NCBI GenBank assembly: GCA_017524525.1
Contig: JAFXVM010000016.1
Coordinates: 45,165 to 109,164 of the forward strand
DNA: 64,000 bases
DNA from: Alphaproteobacteria bacterium
GTDB taxonomy: Bacteria > Pseudomonadota > Alphaproteobacteria > Rs-D84
Direction of reading: 5' to 3'
Made by a program: the position numbers and the translations under genes. The notes under the pieces are model-generated. The model was not told the origin of the DNA. It saw nothing but the letters and a program-made list of their open reading frames with translations, and ran no database searches. How positions within the stretch are numbered: the stretch's first letter is position 1; each line of letters starts with the position of its first letter. Of this stretch, positions 1 through 13,734 are shown one piece after another.

Positions 1-1596
1 AGGGGCTCTGTCATAAAAATCTTTGTAAGAGTAATAATAATCGGGTTGAATCCCTTTTAATATATCCTTGCGCCATTTTGGAGCATTATTTTCACCTTTG
101 GGTTCTGCCCAAAATATAAGGCAATCATCTGTGCATGTGTTTGCGCAAACTTTATCACTGGATATAGCGCCGCCCACTAAACGATAATATCTTGTTGTAG
201 TGGCATACCAGTCATAATTTAGGTTTTGTGTTTCACCATTTTTTCCTGTGAAAGTCTCTAATTTGCATAAGCATTCGTTAACATTAGCATATTGACCTTC
301 TGCATAACACTTTGATGTCCCTTTAACTTTCCCATAAGAAAAAGTTACTTCGTATTCCCCGGGGGCTAATTGGGTACTGTTGCAGTTTTTTGATTGCCAT
401 AAACCGTTGGATAGTTGAGCACAATTATTATTCAAATATTTTGCAAAACCAGAATCAGGTTCCAGCGTTGCATCTTGAGCGGATAATTTTATTTTAGTGG
501 TTGTATCTGTAACAGTAGATTTTTCTTCTTTTTCTGGTTGTGCGACAGGGGCAGCAGAACCAGAAACATTGTTTTCATTTTTAGGTGTTTCCACAGGTGT
601 GTTTTGTTCGGGGGCTTTGTCGTCTGTATTTGCTGGGGCAGGTGGTGTTTCTTGTGGTTTTTCTATACAATCACTGCCGGTAAATGTTTTGTTGCCGTCT
701 TGTTCGCATATTTCTTTGGTTATACAATTGCCATTGTCATCTATATAACCGCCTTGTTTTTCACACTGTTTTTCTTCTTTTGCTTGTTCTCGTTCATTGG
801 CTTTTTTAGTGCGGTTTTCTTGGCGTTGTGTTTTGTTGTCGGCTTTTTGTTTTTCTTTTTTTTGTTTTGCTTTTTCTCGTTCATCGGCTTTTTTATCACG
901 TTGTTCTTGGCGTATATCTTTCTTGGTTTTTTCATTGCCGTTAGATTCGGTTTTTTCTTTGGTTTCTTTCCTTTGTTGTAATTTAGATTTTTCTTTGTCA
1001 TTACAAGTTTTTGTTTTTGCATCCCATGTGTGTTCGCCATCGCTTTCGCAAGATTTTTTTGTTATGCAATTACCATCGACCATAATACCTTTTTGGTCAT
1101 CACATAATTCTGTGGGTGTTTTTTCATTACATCCGGTGCCATCGTATTTATGTTTGCCGTCTTTTTCACAGAGTTTTTTCTGGTTTGCTTCGTCTTTATC
1201 TTTATCTTTCTTTTGTTGTTTTGCGATTTTATCTTTCTTTACGCATTTGTTGTCTACCCATACTGTGTTTTCATCTGCGTTACATACATCTTCTTTGGTT
1301 TTGCATTCCCCATTAACCCATGTATTAGCAGGGTTTGATTCACAACCCTTTTTGTTATTTCGTTTTTCTTGGCGTATGTCTTTCTTGGTTTTATCTACGC
1401 ATTCTTCGCCTGTCCATTTTTTAGTAGTGTCTCTTTCGCATTCGTTTTGGAATCTTTGCATCGCTTTTTCATAGGCAGCGTTTATTTGTTCCATATATTC
1501 TTCGTATTGAGCCTGGGCAGCTTCATCAACGGCAAATGTGTTTTGGACATCAAAACACGAAAAGAAAGCAACCAAAATTATTAAGATTTTCTTCAT
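1..1596 (-). CDS. Secreted Cys-rich repeat protein (partial, runs off window start)
   Basis: Not in the ORF track. ATG at 1596 (MKKILIILVAFFSCFDVQNTFA, signal-peptide-like) and no stop seen to position 1. Short C..W/YxGxxC repeats, K/E/Q-rich segments, a Pro/Thr linker, then a domain with GTSKC, CLC and CANTCTDDC. Confidence 0.8.
   Translation of the reverse strand, partial: MKKILIILVAFFSCFDVQNTFAVDEAAQAQYEEYMEQINAAYEKAMQRFQNECERDTTKKWTGEECVDKTKKDIRQEKRNNKKGCESNPANTWVNGECKTKEDVCNADENTVWVDNKCVKKDKIAKQQKKDKDKDEANQKKLCEKDGKHKYDGTGCNEKTPTELCDDQKGIMVDGNCITKKSCESDGEHTWDAKTKTCNDKEKSKLQQRKETKEKTESNGNEKTKKDIRQEQRDKKADEREKAKQKKEKQKADNKTQRQENRTKKANEREQAKEEKQCEKQGGYIDDNGNCITKEICEQDGNKTFTGSDCIEKPQETPPAPANTDDKAPEQNTPVETPKNENNVSGSAAPVAQPEKEEKSTVTDTTTKIKLSAQDATLEPDSGFAKYLNNNCAQLSNGLWQSKNCNSTQLAPGEYEVTFSYGKVKGTSKCYAEGQYANVNECLCKLETFTGKNGETQNLNYDWYATTTRYYRLVGGAISSDKVCANTCTDDCLIFWAEPKGENNAPKWRKDILKGIQPDYYYSYKDFYDRAP
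904..1392. repeat. Intragenic 27-bp direct repeat (904-930 and 1366-1392, 26/27 identical)
   Basis: ttcttggcgtat(a/g)tctttcttggtttt, encoding KTKKDIRQE twice on the minus strand. Confidence 0.85.
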
Positions 1597-10806: not shown

Positions 10807-11769
10807 ATGAAAAAAGTAAAAAATACCAGAAACACAAAGGTTTCAACAAAAAAAGTTGTTGTTAAAGAGGCAGGTTGTTCTTGTGCTATGTGGTCTTGGG
10901 CTATATATGTGTATTGGTTTATAATCTTGTTCTTTATCGCTGCGACTTTCTATATCATTGGACGCAGTCAGGAATTTTTGCATCCTGCTGTGAATAATGT
11001 TGTCGTTACAGAAGAAGCATTGTTGATGCCCCAAGATTATATCGAATCTGCCAAAGAAAAGATTAATGCAGGTGATATAGATGCTGCTATTGTTGAATTG
11101 AATGCAGCTGTTGATTCAAATGCTAATAGTAATGTTTATACTTTGCGTGGTGAAGCATACATGCAAATGGGTGAATATCAAAAGGCTTTGGCTGATTTTG
11201 ATTCTGCTATAGAAGTAGATGGTATGAATGCGCTGGCTTTTTATGACAGGGCTTTGTTGAATACACGTCTTGAAAATTATGATGTCGCATTAACTGATAT
11301 AAATAATGCTTTGGCTGCACAATCAATGAAACCTGTGGAAACTTTATCTTTGCGTAATTTGTATGCAAAACGTGGACAATTGAATTTATGGTTGAAGAAT
11401 TGGCAGGGGGCTGTGGCTGATTATACAAATTCTTTGGCGCGTGCAGACGGCAGTGTTGTTGCGAATGTTTATGCAGAACGTGCAGAAGCATATACGGCAC
11501 TGGGTAAATATGAAGAAGCAATCGCAGATTATACATCTGCTGTGCGCGTGATATCTGAACAAATTCAGGCTGCATCCAGTCAAGAACAACGCGAATCTCA
11601 ATCAAGCAATGCGATGGCGTATTTTGAAAAGTCTGCCGCGCTTAATTTGCAATTAGGCAGAAAAGATGTTGCAAAAAATGATTTAGAATCTGCTTTTGCA
11701 ATTGCTGTTGCGTTGAATGATTCGGAAAGCATGGAAAGAATCCAAAACTTAATTAATGGGTTGAACTAA
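10807..11769 (+). CDS. Membrane-anchored TPR protein
   Basis: One TM helix followed by several TPR repeats (RGEAY...A.ADF). Confidence 0.8.
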   Translation: MKKVKNTRNTKVSTKKVVVKEAGCSCAMWSWAIYVYWFIILFFIAATFYIIGRSQEFLHPAVNNVVVTEEALLMPQDYIESAKEKINAGDIDAAIVELNAAVDSNANSNVYTLRGEAYMQMGEYQKALADFDSAIEVDGMNALAFYDRALLNTRLENYDVALTDINNALAAQSMKPVETLSLRNLYAKRGQLNLWLKNWQGAVADYTNSLARADGSVVANVYAERAEAYTALGKYEEAIADYTSAVRVISEQIQAASSQEQRESQSSNAMAYFEKSAALNLQLGRKDVAKNDLESAFAIAVALNDSESMERIQNLINGLN

Positions 11770-11798
11770 AAAATCCGCCAATATGGCGGATTTTTTTT
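11768..11798 (+). terminator. Intrinsic terminator insulating the thrS unit
   Basis: AAATCCGCCA-ATA-TGGCGGATTTTTTTT. Confidence 0.88.
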
Positions 11799-11825
11799 GA
11801 CTTTTGTTATAAATAGTAATACCAT
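11797..11825 (+). promoter_or_regulatory. Sigma70-type promoter of thr leader-thrS
   Basis: TTGACT(11797)-17-TACCAT(11820); predicted start site falls at about the ATG at 11833. Confidence 0.6.
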
Positions 11826-11832
11826 GTTAAAC

Positions 11833-11889
11833 ATGATTTATAAATTATTTATTTTTACAACGACTACTACAACCCCTTTGGGGGTCTAG
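11833..11889 (+). CDS. Thr-rich leader peptide MIYKLFIFTTTTTTPLGV
   Basis: Six tandem Thr codons ACA ACG ACT ACT ACA ACC; ends 84 nt before thrS. An alternative in-frame ATG lies at 11824. Confidence 0.8.
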   Translation: MIYKLFIFTTTTTTPLGV

Positions 11890-11973
11890 ATTTCTATATT
11901 GCGATAAATTTTCGCACGTATTATAATAACCAAGCAATTTAAAAAATTAATAAATAAAAAAAGAAGGTAAATT

Positions 11974-13707
11974 ATGTCTTATCCAATAGAATTAATTCGT
12001 CATTCACTGGCTCACGTGATGGCGGCTGCGGTTAAAAAATTACATCCAGAGGTTAAATTTGCAGGTGGTCCTGCAATAGAAAATGGTTTTTATTATGACT
12101 TTGATACTGAATACAGATTCAGCGAAGATGATTTTGCGGCTATTGAAAAAGAAATGAAGTCTTTGATTAAAAGTGATGGTCGATTCGAAAGACGCGAAAT
12201 TTCGTTAGCAGAAGCCAAAGAAATTTTCAAAGACCAACCATATAAAATGGAATGGTTAAACGAATATGATGCTAAAGGTGAAGCGTTATCAATTTATACT
12301 TTCCGTGATTTTACAGATTTGTGTCGTGGACCACACGTTGAATCAAGTAAAGATTTGCCAAAAGACGGATTCAAGATTCGTTCTGTGGCGGGTGCTTACT
12401 GGAAAGGCGATTCGAAAAATAAAATGTTGCAAAGAATTTATGTTGACGCTTTTGAATCCAAAGAAGAATTAGATAATTTTTTGAAAATGCAGGAAGAAGC
12501 AGCTGCGCGTGATAACCGTAAACTTGGTAAAGAAATGGATTTATTCCATTTTGAACCTGAATATGCTCCGGGTGCGGTGTTTTGGCACGACAAGGGGTAT
12601 AAAATTTATCGTAAATTGATTGAATATATTCGTATGCGTCAGGAAATGTCGGGTTATCAAGAAATTTCTACTCCGTCAGTTATGGATAGATGTTTGTGGG
12701 AAAAATCAGGACACTGGGCAAAATATGGTGCGCATAATTATTCTGGAACAACCCAAGATGGTAAGGTTTTTTGTGTAAAGCCTATGTCTTGTCCAGGGGG
12801 AATGTTAGTGTTCGGTCAAGGAATAAAATCTTATAAGGAATTGCCGTTGTATTTGGCTGAATTTGGTAAAGTAAATCGTTATGAAGCGGCTGGCGCTTTG
12901 TCTGGTTTGATGCGCGTGCGTGAATTTACTCAAGATGATGCACATATTTTCTGTACAGAAGAACAACTGGAAAGCGAGGTTGTCAAAATTTTACGTTTTA
13001 TCAAAGATATTTATGGAAAATTTGGATTTGAAAAAATTACTATGAAACTGGCTACGCGTCCGCTTTCTGAATTCCGTATCGGAAGTGATGAAGTTTGGGA
13101 CAAAGCTGAAGGTGCACTGAAAAACGCATTAGATAAAAATGGTATCGAATATGAAATCGCGGAAAATGATGCTGCTTTTTATGGACCAAAAATAGATAAT
13201 TATTTAAAAGATTCTATGGGACGTGTTTGGCAATGTGGTACAGTGCAACTAGATATGAATTTGCCGGAAAGATTTGATTTGTCTTATATCGGTGAAGATG
13301 GCGAAAAACATCGCCCAATTATGTTACATCGTGCTATGTTGGGGTCTATCGAACGTTTCTTTGGCATTTTGTTAGAATCTACAGGTGGCAATTTGCCACT
13401 ATGGTTATCTCCAGAGCCTGTTGTGGTTGTTCCTGTATCTGAAAAATACAAAGATTATGCGGATAAGGTTGTTGGTGATTTACGTGATGCTGGTATTTTT
13501 GCTCGCGCTGATTTACGCGATGAAAAGGTTAATTACAAAGTGCGTGAATTGTCTTTGTCAAAAACCCCGATTATCGCTGTGGTTGGTGAAAAGGAAATGG
13601 CGGACAAATCTGTCACGTTGCGTTATCTCGGTAGAGAAGGGCAAGAGGTTAAGTCTTTGGCCGAGTTTGTTGAATATATGAAAAATGCAGTTAAAATGCC
13701 GTTGTAA
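11974..13707 (+). CDS. thrS: Threonine--tRNA ligase (no N-terminal TGS domain)
   Basis: RHSLAH, DLCRGPHV, KPMSCP, RVREFTQDDAH, HRAMLGSIERF. Confidence 0.98.
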   Translation: MSYPIELIRHSLAHVMAAAVKKLHPEVKFAGGPAIENGFYYDFDTEYRFSEDDFAAIEKEMKSLIKSDGRFERREISLAEAKEIFKDQPYKMEWLNEYDAKGEALSIYTFRDFTDLCRGPHVESSKDLPKDGFKIRSVAGAYWKGDSKNKMLQRIYVDAFESKEELDNFLKMQEEAAARDNRKLGKEMDLFHFEPEYAPGAVFWHDKGYKIYRKLIEYIRMRQEMSGYQEISTPSVMDRCLWEKSGHWAKYGAHNYSGTTQDGKVFCVKPMSCPGGMLVFGQGIKSYKELPLYLAEFGKVNRYEAAGALSGLMRVREFTQDDAHIFCTEEQLESEVVKILRFIKDIYGKFGFEKITMKLATRPLSEFRIGSDEVWDKAEGALKNALDKNGIEYEIAENDAAFYGPKIDNYLKDSMGRVWQCGTVQLDMNLPERFDLSYIGEDGEKHRPIMLHRAMLGSIERFFGILLESTGGNLPLWLSPEPVVVVPVSEKYKDYADKVVGDLRDAGIFARADLRDEKVNYKVRELSLSKTPIIAVVGEKEMADKSVTLRYLGREGQEVKSLAEFVEYMKNAVKMPL

Positions 13708-13714
13708 AAGAGTA

Positions 13715-13734
13715 GGGCGCAATTTTTTGCGCCC
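13715..13734 (+). terminator. GC hairpin after thrS (no U-tract; stabiliser or weak terminator)
   Basis: GGGCGCAA-TTTT-TTGCGCCC. Confidence 0.5.

Follow-up and report, generated by a model that had tools for sequence, protein, structure and literature searches.

A conserved threonine-codon leader ORF, predicted to be translated leaderless, precedes thrS in Enterousia-type gut alphaproteobacteria and has cognate counterparts before other aminoacyl-tRNA synthetase genes

How do the Alphaproteobacteria adjust the level of an aminoacyl-tRNA synthetase (aaRS) to the supply of its amino acid? Control of this kind is largely uncharted in this class, in which there are no T-boxes and to which the thrS operator of Escherichia coli is not general. 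The question is raised by a 64,000-nucleotide stretch of DNA (hereafter the window; assembly GCA_017524525.1, contig JAFXVM010000016.1, positions 45,165 to 109,164), in which thrS, the gene for threonyl-tRNA synthetase (ThrRS), is preceded by a short open reading frame (ORF) with six tandem Thr codons. Judged by comparison of sequences, this thrS leader is real, strongly conserved and Thr-codon-based, and it is one of several aaRS leaders that form a family in this gut alphaproteobacterium with its reduced genome; that it senses Thr-tRNA is very likely. The source organism belongs to the group of Candidatus Enterousia, gut and rumen alphaproteobacteria of the order Rs-D84, and its genome (G000) comprises 965,488 bases with 37% G+C. 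The closest thrS loci are those of Candidatus Enterousia and of "uncultured Alphaproteobacteria" from rumen, horse, chicken, mouse and human gut. The accessible part of one report places Enterousia in this uncultured order, with genomes below about 1 Mb, and describes such gut bacteria as devoid of standard amino-acid transporters (PMC12306168).

The anatomy of the locus, given here in coordinates of the forward strand of the window, starts with a promoter-like site, P1 (11797-11825; 9 of 12 matches), made of the -35 hexamer TTGACT (11797-11802), a 17-nucleotide (nt) spacer and the -10 hexamer TACCAT (11820-11825). The latter ends 7 nt before the ATG, at 11833, of the leader ORF (11833-11889), whose 18 codons plus stop encode MIYKLFIFTTTTTTPLGV. 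The second half of this ORF is the Thr-codon run, ACA ACG ACT ACT ACA ACC (11857-11874), which contains the proposed sensing codons and uses all four Thr synonyms, as an earlier note on this DNA had pointed out. Hairpin 1 (11867-11889; -9.2 kcal/mol), whose 5' arm is made up of the last Thr codons, consists of the core ACCCC-UUUG-GGGGU (11872-11885) and a lower stem CUA/UAG, where in the 3' arm the leader stop codon UAG pairs with CUA. A U-rich linker, AUUUCUAUAU (11890-11899), separates hairpin 1 from hairpin 2, UGCGA-UAAAUUU-UCGCA (11900-11916; -5.7 kcal/mol), which lies within the -35 and spacer of a second promoter-like site, P2 (11899-11927; 10 of 12 matches), with TTGCGA at 11899-11904, 17 nt, and TATAAT at 11922-11927. 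P2 was absent from the earlier note and is the best-scoring promoter-like site of the region. The 46 nt between P2 and the start of thrS are A-rich and contain the ribosome-binding site AAGAAGG, which together with the start codon spans 11961-11976, the ATG being at 11974. The thrS gene itself (11974-13707; Pfam PF07973, PF00587 and PF03129) encodes a ThrRS of 577 amino acids (aa) with editing, class II core and anticodon-binding domains and without an N-terminal TGS domain. P1, the leader ORF, its Thr codons, the two hairpins and thrS were all found where the earlier note had placed them, and the alphaproteobacterial host that it assumed agrees with the names of the closest thrS loci. A scan of the whole source genome for intergenic ATG-initiated ORFs of 6-46 codons with at least 4 identical residues in a row returned 13 entries, among which only the Thr leader, listed twice by virtue of two in-frame ATGs, showed a run of at least 5.

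We examined the distribution of the leader among relatives at increasing distance. It is carried by all 51 Enterousia-group thrS loci analysed (48 distinct sequences), this set being the loci that passed a screen for the hairpin and the leader ORF. A first survey yielded 30 thrS loci out of 41 related genomes, one of them cut at the gene start; all 23 loci of the same genus for which upstream sequence was available had the Thr-rich ORF and the hairpin, and so had 3 of the 6 loci belonging to other families of the order, the three loci devoid of the leader coding for a ThrRS with an N-terminal extension. A second survey covered 80 named contigs, 29 of which were Enterousia-like (77-93% ThrRS identity), again with one cut. 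The CCCC-N-GGGG hairpin was found in all 28 uncut Enterousia-like loci and a run of at least 3 Thr in 27 of these, the remaining one being interrupted (TT-L-T-C-TT). Both the Thr-rich ORF and the hairpin were missing in all 50 more distant loci computed (49-62% ThrRS identity), a group that includes gut metagenome-assembled genomes labelled "Azospirillum", Pelagibacter and a Rickettsia-labelled record; one further locus (68%) was cut. On the scale of the order, the core motif ACAACCCC-N3-6-GGGG occurred in 262 of 328 genomes, usually as one copy per genome, against 0-2 occurrences of a reversed control motif in the same scan. By family, it was detected in 253 of 298 genomes of f1, 3 of 4 of f2, 2 of 2 of f5, 2 of 3 of f6, 1 of 19 of f3 and 0 of 1 of f4.

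Within the 48 distinct sequences, the leader peptides are 15-21 residues long and contain 4-8 Thr each, compared with a genome-wide Thr share of 6.3% in long ORFs. Their longest Thr run varies from 2 to 7, and the residue before the first Thr is Phe in 31 leaders. The 274 Thr codons (136 ACA, 73 ACT, 55 ACC and 10 ACG) make up 27 different codon strings; third positions drift, and Thr itself is kept. The earlier note had proposed to look for conserved Thr runs with synonymous variation ahead of thrS in related genomes, and this is the pattern displayed by the 51 loci. In every leader compared the Thr run adjoins hairpin 1, and the leader unit remains with thrS where the upstream gene differs. 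The loci of family f2 show a variant arrangement, in which the two Thr codons lie inside the hairpin arm and a U-rich stretch comes straight after the hairpin.

Some variation was also recorded in the synthetase itself. In the 10 distant alphaproteobacterial homologues examined, ThrRS begins with the TGS domain that the Enterousia enzyme lacks. In family f6 a Thr leader precedes a thrS that has a TGS domain, so that loss of TGS and presence of the leader are not strictly linked. The thrS of one relative, G012 (C11:22805-24533), is split between two reading frames, which cover residues 1-137 and 137-577, and hairpin 2 is not retained upstream of it. Two relatives possess a further, distantly related ThrRS-like gene, at 40-41% identity (G007:C2:423-1670 and G012:C37:3312-4547).

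The 5' end of the element is as constant as the ORF. P1 is kept as TTGAyT-16/18-TAnnnT in 51 of 51 loci, and the gap between its -10 and the leader ATG measures 6 nt in 10 loci, 7 in 22, 8 in 1, 9 in 12 and 10 in 6. No Shine-Dalgarno sequence for the leader ORF was present in any of the 51 loci, a gap of 6-10 nt leaving no room for one. Because the -10 ends so close to the ATG, with no space for a Shine-Dalgarno sequence, the mRNA is predicted to be leaderless, and the position of the promoter in all 51 loci lends support to the earlier note, which had proposed a leaderless start for the ORF of the window.

The two hairpins are conserved in different ways. In hairpin 1, the CCCC and GGGG segments are invariant in 48 of 48 sequences, while the loop of 3-5 nt varies (UUUG, GUUG, CGCG, UGCG, UCUG and others). 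The extended stem counts 7-10 pairs in 41 of the 48 sequences, with a median of -10.7 kcal/mol, and the leader stop codon ends 0-2 nt past the stem in 36. At least 5 U are found within the 8 nt that follow the extended hairpin in 30 of 48; the tail of the source genome is interrupted (AUUUCUAU). Hairpin 1 also encodes the P-x-G-V tail of the leader peptide, so that part of the peptide conservation is in fact RNA or DNA conservation. RNAalifold applied to the 48 leaders retained only four invariant C-G pairs, with no covariation. It missed hairpin 2, whose variable loop had been misaligned by MAFFT, and a stem search in each sequence separately recovered it: hairpin 2 (at least 4 pairs, of which at least 3 G-C) is present in 39 of 48 sequences, versus a mean of 2.3 and a maximum of 7 in 200 shuffles. 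Its arms fall into 21 types and show compensatory changes (GCGA/UCGC, GCGG/CCGC, GCGC/GCGC, GCAC/GUGC and GUGC/GCAC), and its loop varies in sequence and in length (3-9 nt). In the source genome alone, hairpins 1 and 2 were not significant against shuffles (z = -1.5 and -2.0, respectively) and the full leader folded no better than shuffles (z = -0.47). Support for both hairpins thus comes from conservation, since single-sequence folds are not better than shuffles. The U-rich linker between them (11890-11899) might serve as a weak terminator tail, as a site of pausing or as a target for an RNase.

Despite the 3-9 nt loop of hairpin 2, the spacing of P2 stays at 16-18 nt in 48 Enterousia-group loci (47 of the genus Enterousia and 1 of a sister genus, g13), and in L010, L039 and L058, where the hairpin lies four bases away from its usual place, P2 still has TTGCGG. 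That spacing and hexamer are kept through such variation argues that P2 is a real promoter and that hairpin 2 is a separate constraint. Since hairpin 2 covaries and lies upstream of the predicted P2 start, P1 RNA running through P2 appears to be under selection. The earlier note would have given up its proposal if thrS transcription started downstream of the leader; this may be partly true, in that thrS may have two start sites.

RNA data touching the locus consisted of four metatranscriptome runs with small shares of the stretch (0.07-0.14), all as contigs in which starts, ends and strand are not readable. Contig X1 (194 nt, 4 differences) spans 11847-12040, that is the leader, both hairpins and P2, and extends into thrS. 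In two further studies, relatives are represented by contigs that start just past hairpin 1, at 11885 and 11891, and continue into thrS. Contig X2 spans 11627-11861 and joins the upstream gene to the leader, which may reflect readthrough or else DNA. The predicted start of P2 transcripts is the beginning of no contig, an uninformative result as only three contigs cover that stretch. X1 and the contigs beginning at 11885 and 11891 fit, if weakly, transcripts started upstream of P2, DNA carry-over or assembly breaks being further possible sources.

A leader tied to the charging of one tRNA might be expected to have counterparts, and we therefore turn to the other synthetases of the same genome. 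We located 19 aaRS loci in the source genome by Pfam models and read their upstream regions. Short ORFs with cognate codons precede 5 of the 19, namely thrS, ileS, cysS, hisS and a tyrS paralogue; a cognate run was missing upstream of the other 14. The ileS leader, MSKKTIIIIK (G000:C12:35367-35399, or L141:3102-3134, minus strand), follows a promoter-like TTGATT-17-TATAAA at 7 nt from the ATG and is itself followed by a canonical terminator, GGCGC-AUAUA-GCGCC and U7, with no second promoter seen. It was found in 23 of 24 genus loci, the 24th starting with GTG, and in 0 of 6 loci of family f3. The cysS leader, MTVLFINFYCCC (L143, about 1509-1547, minus strand), starts 6 nt from its -10; it is accompanied by a hairpin, UGCAAACA/UGUUUGCA, whose 3' arm (that of GCAAAC/GUUUGC) forms the -35 of a second promoter, TTGCAT-17-TAATAT, with TAAAAT in several relatives. 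This leader occurs in 19 of 21 genus loci and in 0 of 9 outside the genus. The hisS leader, MMVKNFVSFSFNFHHTRVGVCF (L142, about 1377-1445, minus strand), ends in FHHTRVGVCF and also has 6 nt between -10 and ATG. Its hairpin, ACACCC/GGGUGU, starts in the second His codon and covaries (CACGCC.../...GGCGUG variants), and about 25-30 nt separate its end from a conserved extended -10, TGATATAAT; the leader was present in 19 of 21 genus loci and in 0 of 7 outside the genus. The leader of the tyrS paralogue, ending in GFYYAY (G000:C8:4560-4640, or L144:273-353, plus strand), starts 10 nt from its -10 and is followed by interleaved antiterminator and terminator arms and U7. This paralogue (TyrRS-like, 399 aa) occurs in only 4 of 41 related genomes, with the leader in 3 of those 4 loci, and the other tRNA-synt_1b gene of the source genome (C9) has no such leader. 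A hairpin followed by a U-rich tract is thus a feature of ileS, of the tyrS paralogue and, in the source genome, of cysS.

Since cognate-codon leaders precede four other aaRS genes, a charging sensor at thrS is far likelier than a chance ORF, and the match between leader and synthetase in five genes is the strongest argument for sensing of tRNA charging. Together with the conserved Thr runs, it supports the proposal of the earlier note that Thr-tRNA is sensed by ribosome stalling, itself a prediction.

Further observations were made at aaRS loci. In several relatives, the leader ORF of ileS (L215, L216, L221 and L222) or cysS (L187, L189, L191 and L194) lies about 10-25 nt past the 3' end of a tRNA gene and has no promoter of its own; a near-leaderless 5' end might be made there by tRNA 3' processing. 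At hisS, another hairpin that covaries coincides with the predicted start of P2 transcripts, whose 5' end it would turn into a stem-loop. Short ORFs, MKQNIKRIFN and MRMYN, with a hairpin and U-tract before the gene and no clear cognate run, were seen at lysS (G000:C17, L145) and metG (G000:C12), respectively, and the upstream region of aspS is long and GC-rich, with no obvious leader ORF.

How could such a leader act on thrS? In the scheme that we favour, P1 would give rise to a leaderless mRNA beginning at the AUG of the 18-codon ORF, where a 70S ribosome would start. When charged tRNA-Thr is scarce, this ribosome would dwell on the Thr run; since the run reaches into the 5' arm of hairpin 1, the ribosome would keep the hairpin open and cover most of the 40-nt unstructured leader, and P1 transcripts would then proceed into thrS. 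When Thr-tRNA is plentiful, the ribosome would reach the stop codon within the stem and depart, hairpin 1 would close, the leader would lie bare, and P1 transcripts would end early, either at hairpin 1 with its U-rich tail or through Rho. P2 would meanwhile supply a basal, unregulated thrS mRNA, to which the leader would add a starvation-induced boost. We attach about an even chance to this output, in which P1 transcripts are spared early termination and P2 contributes a basal level. Rho is encoded in the source genome (PF07497 match) and, across the order, in 310 of 328 genomes, or in 222 of the 224 that are of good quality; being near-universal, its presence cannot test the Rho version. The first 44 nt of the leader contain 13 C and 2 G.

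Several points weigh against termination as the output. No terminator-like site was called at hairpin 1 or 2 in a scan of 11797-11974, in keeping with the statement of the earlier note that no U-tract terminator precedes thrS; this statement is nevertheless only roughly right, as the tail after the extended hairpin 1, though interrupted, is U-rich. Neither RNAalifold on the 48 leaders, nor single-sequence folds, nor inspection for a third segment disclosed an alternative antiterminator pairing, the leader forming two independent hairpins. The Thr codons would lie only 23-40 nt before the release point; judging from general ribosome and polymerase footprints, a close-following ribosome would mask the hairpin whether stalled or not, and a late one would never mask it. 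With this geometry, a plain one-hairpin intrinsic terminator is not obviously Thr-specific, a timing difficulty that a Rho-type or post-transcriptional step would avoid. As to Rho, the Thr tract gives A-C rather than pyrimidine-C dinucleotides, and thus no textbook loading site. In addition, the covarying hairpin 2 has no role in the termination model, and the contribution of the leader could be small if P2 is strong.

The timing difficulty lends some weight to the possibility, to which we give a tentative place, that the same sensor has a post-transcriptional output. All P1 transcripts would then reach thrS, and the parked ribosome would either shield the mRNA from RNase or free the thrS ribosome-binding region. 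In the former version, a ribosome on the Thr run would block RNase attack that depends on the 5' end or is directed to the linker, and P1-derived thrS mRNA would live longer. AU-rich linkers between two hairpins are the kind of site that RNase E prefers, and the AU-rich linker at 11890-11899 is so placed; the contigs of two studies that start at 11885 and 11891 are a weak hint in the same direction. In the latter version, the ribosome would break a pairing of the U-rich first half of the leader with the A-rich ribosome-binding region of thrS, as for ermC or the mycobacterial poly-Cys ORFs. Minimum-energy folds of many orthologues do pair UUUCUUU-type codons before the Thr run (where Phe stands in 31 of 48 leaders) with the AAAGG region, duplexes of -9 kcal/mol or lower are found in 6 of 48 (e.g., -15.0 for L014 and -12.8 for L045), and the accessible part of one study describes a tested precedent in which leaderless ORFs devoid of a terminator free a Shine-Dalgarno sequence (bioRxiv 10.1101/834739). 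Yet duplexes of the leader with the thrS ribosome-binding region were hardly stronger in cognate than in non-cognate combinations (-5.6 versus -5.2 kcal/mol; permutation P = 0.087), and the anti-Shine-Dalgarno model is thus not supported. Base pairs between the 5' end of the mRNA and the start region of thrS (-2.7 versus -2.3 kcal/mol; P = 0.033, uncorrected for relatedness) were rejected as evidence, their energies being very weak. The full leader of the source genome, as stated above, folds no better than shuffles, its Thr codons do not pair with the Shine-Dalgarno sequence, unlike in the mycobacterial case, and neither version accounts for the invariant hairpin 1 or for hairpin 2.

As another possibility, the P1 unit might act on P2, with polymerases from P1 pausing at or reading across P2 and occluding it, and with the position of the ribosome deciding whether they stop at the hairpins on the P2 -35. 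In thrS, cysS and hisS alike, a sensor ORF is combined with a hairpin that coincides with or adjoins the -35 region of another conserved promoter; hairpin 2 of thrS lies inside TTGCGn-17-TATAAT, and ileS, which has a strong terminator, shows no second promoter. Alternatively, a short leader RNA or peptide might act in trans in the manner of rnTrpL and peTrpL of Sinorhizobium; trans roles of a leaderless attenuator RNA are documented in an alphaproteobacterium, as far as the accessible part of the source goes (PMC6614838). We hold both unlikely. No target for an RNA acting in trans was found, none having been looked for. Readthrough transcripts from P1 still carry thrS, so that interference needs further assumptions, and the Thr codons inside the hairpin arm in family f2 mean that stalling must open the hairpin. 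The latter point contradicts the idea that stalling would favour termination at hairpin 1 and so set P2 free, and this idea was rejected. Finally, the Thr-rich ORF might be no regulator of thrS at all, being a gene for a small hydrophobic peptide or arising incidentally from an element conserved at the DNA or RNA level, with thrS transcribed from P2. P2 is indeed conserved and the best promoter match in the region, the hairpin-coded P-x-G-V tail makes part of the peptide conservation a matter of nucleic acid, and the tie between ORF and thrS was drawn from sequence alone. We nevertheless consider this reading highly improbable: the leader unit stays with thrS while the upstream gene changes, Thr is kept while its third positions vary, hairpin 2 covaries as RNA though it lies upstream of the predicted P2 start, and leaders enriched in the amino acid of the gene that they precede would be unexpected at four other aaRS genes for unrelated small proteins.

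On either side of the unit lie features with terminator-like character. The upstream gene, a TPR-repeat gene (10807-11769, plus strand; Pfam TPR), ends in an intrinsic terminator (11768-11796, plus strand) with a 13-pair stem and a T-run, the U-tract of which runs into the -35 of P1. Directly 3' of thrS, a palindrome, GGGCGCAAUUUUUUGCGCCC (13715-13734), was called terminator-like on both strands.

Overall, aaRS genes themselves appear to carry the amino-acid sensors in these gut bacteria with genomes of about 1 Mb. As a speculative extension, which we put forward with considerable reserve, Enterousia and its relatives may possess a lineage-wide "aaRS ribulon", in which at least 5 aaRS genes (thrS, hisS, cysS, ileS and the tyrS paralogue) would be tuned by leaderless cognate ORFs, and in which, at thrS, hisS and cysS, the sensor would be wired in a so far undescribed manner, with a ribosome-controlled hairpin on or beside the -35 of the second promoter and with the leader controlling the interplay of tandem promoters or a Rho- or RNase-dependent step in place of a classical terminator switch. 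If the thrS leader acts as proposed, it would be a Thr-responsive element that is compact and portable, leaderless sensor ORFs would be known from the Proteobacteria as well as from the Actinobacteria, and the leader would offer about 300 natural variants for working out the mechanism of a class of leader peptides with a hairpin but without a terminator.

Which known systems does the thrS leader resemble? The classical leader-peptide attenuators are those of the thr, his and trp operons and of E. coli pheST, with Thr_leader as a curated Rfam model. With them the present leader shares a short ORF with tandem codons (here six for Thr) for the amino acid handled by the downstream gene, and, as proposed here, a ribosome dwell time that reads tRNA charging; pheST is moreover an aaRS operon so controlled. 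It differs from them by having neither an alternative antiterminator/terminator pair nor, as far as the scan shows, a canonical U-tract, by sensing codons that overlap the only nearby hairpin, by its predicted leaderless mRNA and by the second promoter downstream. Attenuation may also be Rho-dependent, as at upstream ORFs of the tnaC, speFL and mgtL type. E. coli thrS is controlled by a translational operator that mimics tRNA-Thr; this operator and the T-boxes of Firmicutes resemble the present system in that thrS is controlled in cis through its 5' region, in response to the balance of tRNA-Thr and ThrRS. A tRNA-mimic operator was rejected on account of the variable loops of hairpins 1 and 2, which are thus unlike an anticodon loop; both hairpins lie at least 58 nt upstream of the ATG at 11974. 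A T-box received no support either: an Rfam search of 11300-12500 with E up to 10 gave 36 matches, all below threshold, with no T-box and no Thr_leader among them, and all weak matches to leader families fell on the terminator of the upstream gene.

Leaderless ORFs with sensing codons have precedents. According to the accessible part of the corresponding study, the poly-Cys short ORFs of mycobacteria (the "Cys ribulon") were tested and act by freeing a Shine-Dalgarno sequence; like the thrS leader in its predicted form, they are leaderless, contain a tract of codons for one amino acid, lack a terminator and occur at several loci per genome, and the response is there exerted via ribosome pausing (bioRxiv 10.1101/834739). 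In contrast to the situation described here, where such pairing is unsupported, the Cys codons pair with the Shine-Dalgarno sequence of the next gene, and one amino acid governs several metabolic loci, whereas in Enterousia each leader matches its own aaRS. Within the Alphaproteobacteria, the accessible parts of two reports describe, in Sinorhizobium meliloti, a trpL attenuator that is leaderless and, in Caulobacter, a small ORF that is translated and precedes trpS (PMC10117765, PMC4117421). The former is a leaderless leader ORF, as predicted for the thrS leader, but acts on a biosynthetic gene by way of a classical terminator; the latter likewise precedes an aaRS gene, but was only noted as a likely leader peptide, and both differ from the thrS leader by the gene concerned and the lack of a tandem promoter in what is described. 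A His leader before hisS paralogues is known in bacilli, as indicated in the part of the source available (PMC2965389). In the literature covered, mostly titles and abstracts with few subscription journals, we found no publication that deals with a leader peptide of thrS in Alphaproteobacteria or with the regulation of genes in Enterousia.

The closest precedent that emerges from these partly accessible sources is the thrL-thrS leader of Streptomyces lividans TK24, annotated from RNA-seq as a leaderless ORF of 18 residues straight upstream of thrS, in which Thr codons are followed by Pro and Gly (...ETTPGF...); leaders also precede leuS, trpS and alaS in the same genome (PMC8079986). S. lividans is an actinobacterium, however, its thrL has only two Thr codons, and the part of the report consulted contains no study of conservation or mechanism and describes neither a second promoter nor a second hairpin, the likeness in the hairpin being drawn from the printed peptide, not from DNA (PMC8079986). 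Set beside these systems, the Enterousia thrS leader is of a kind already known, and it is new as a combination: a predicted leaderless start, a single invariant hairpin that shares sequence with the sensing codons, and a second promoter in tandem, which carries a covarying hairpin.

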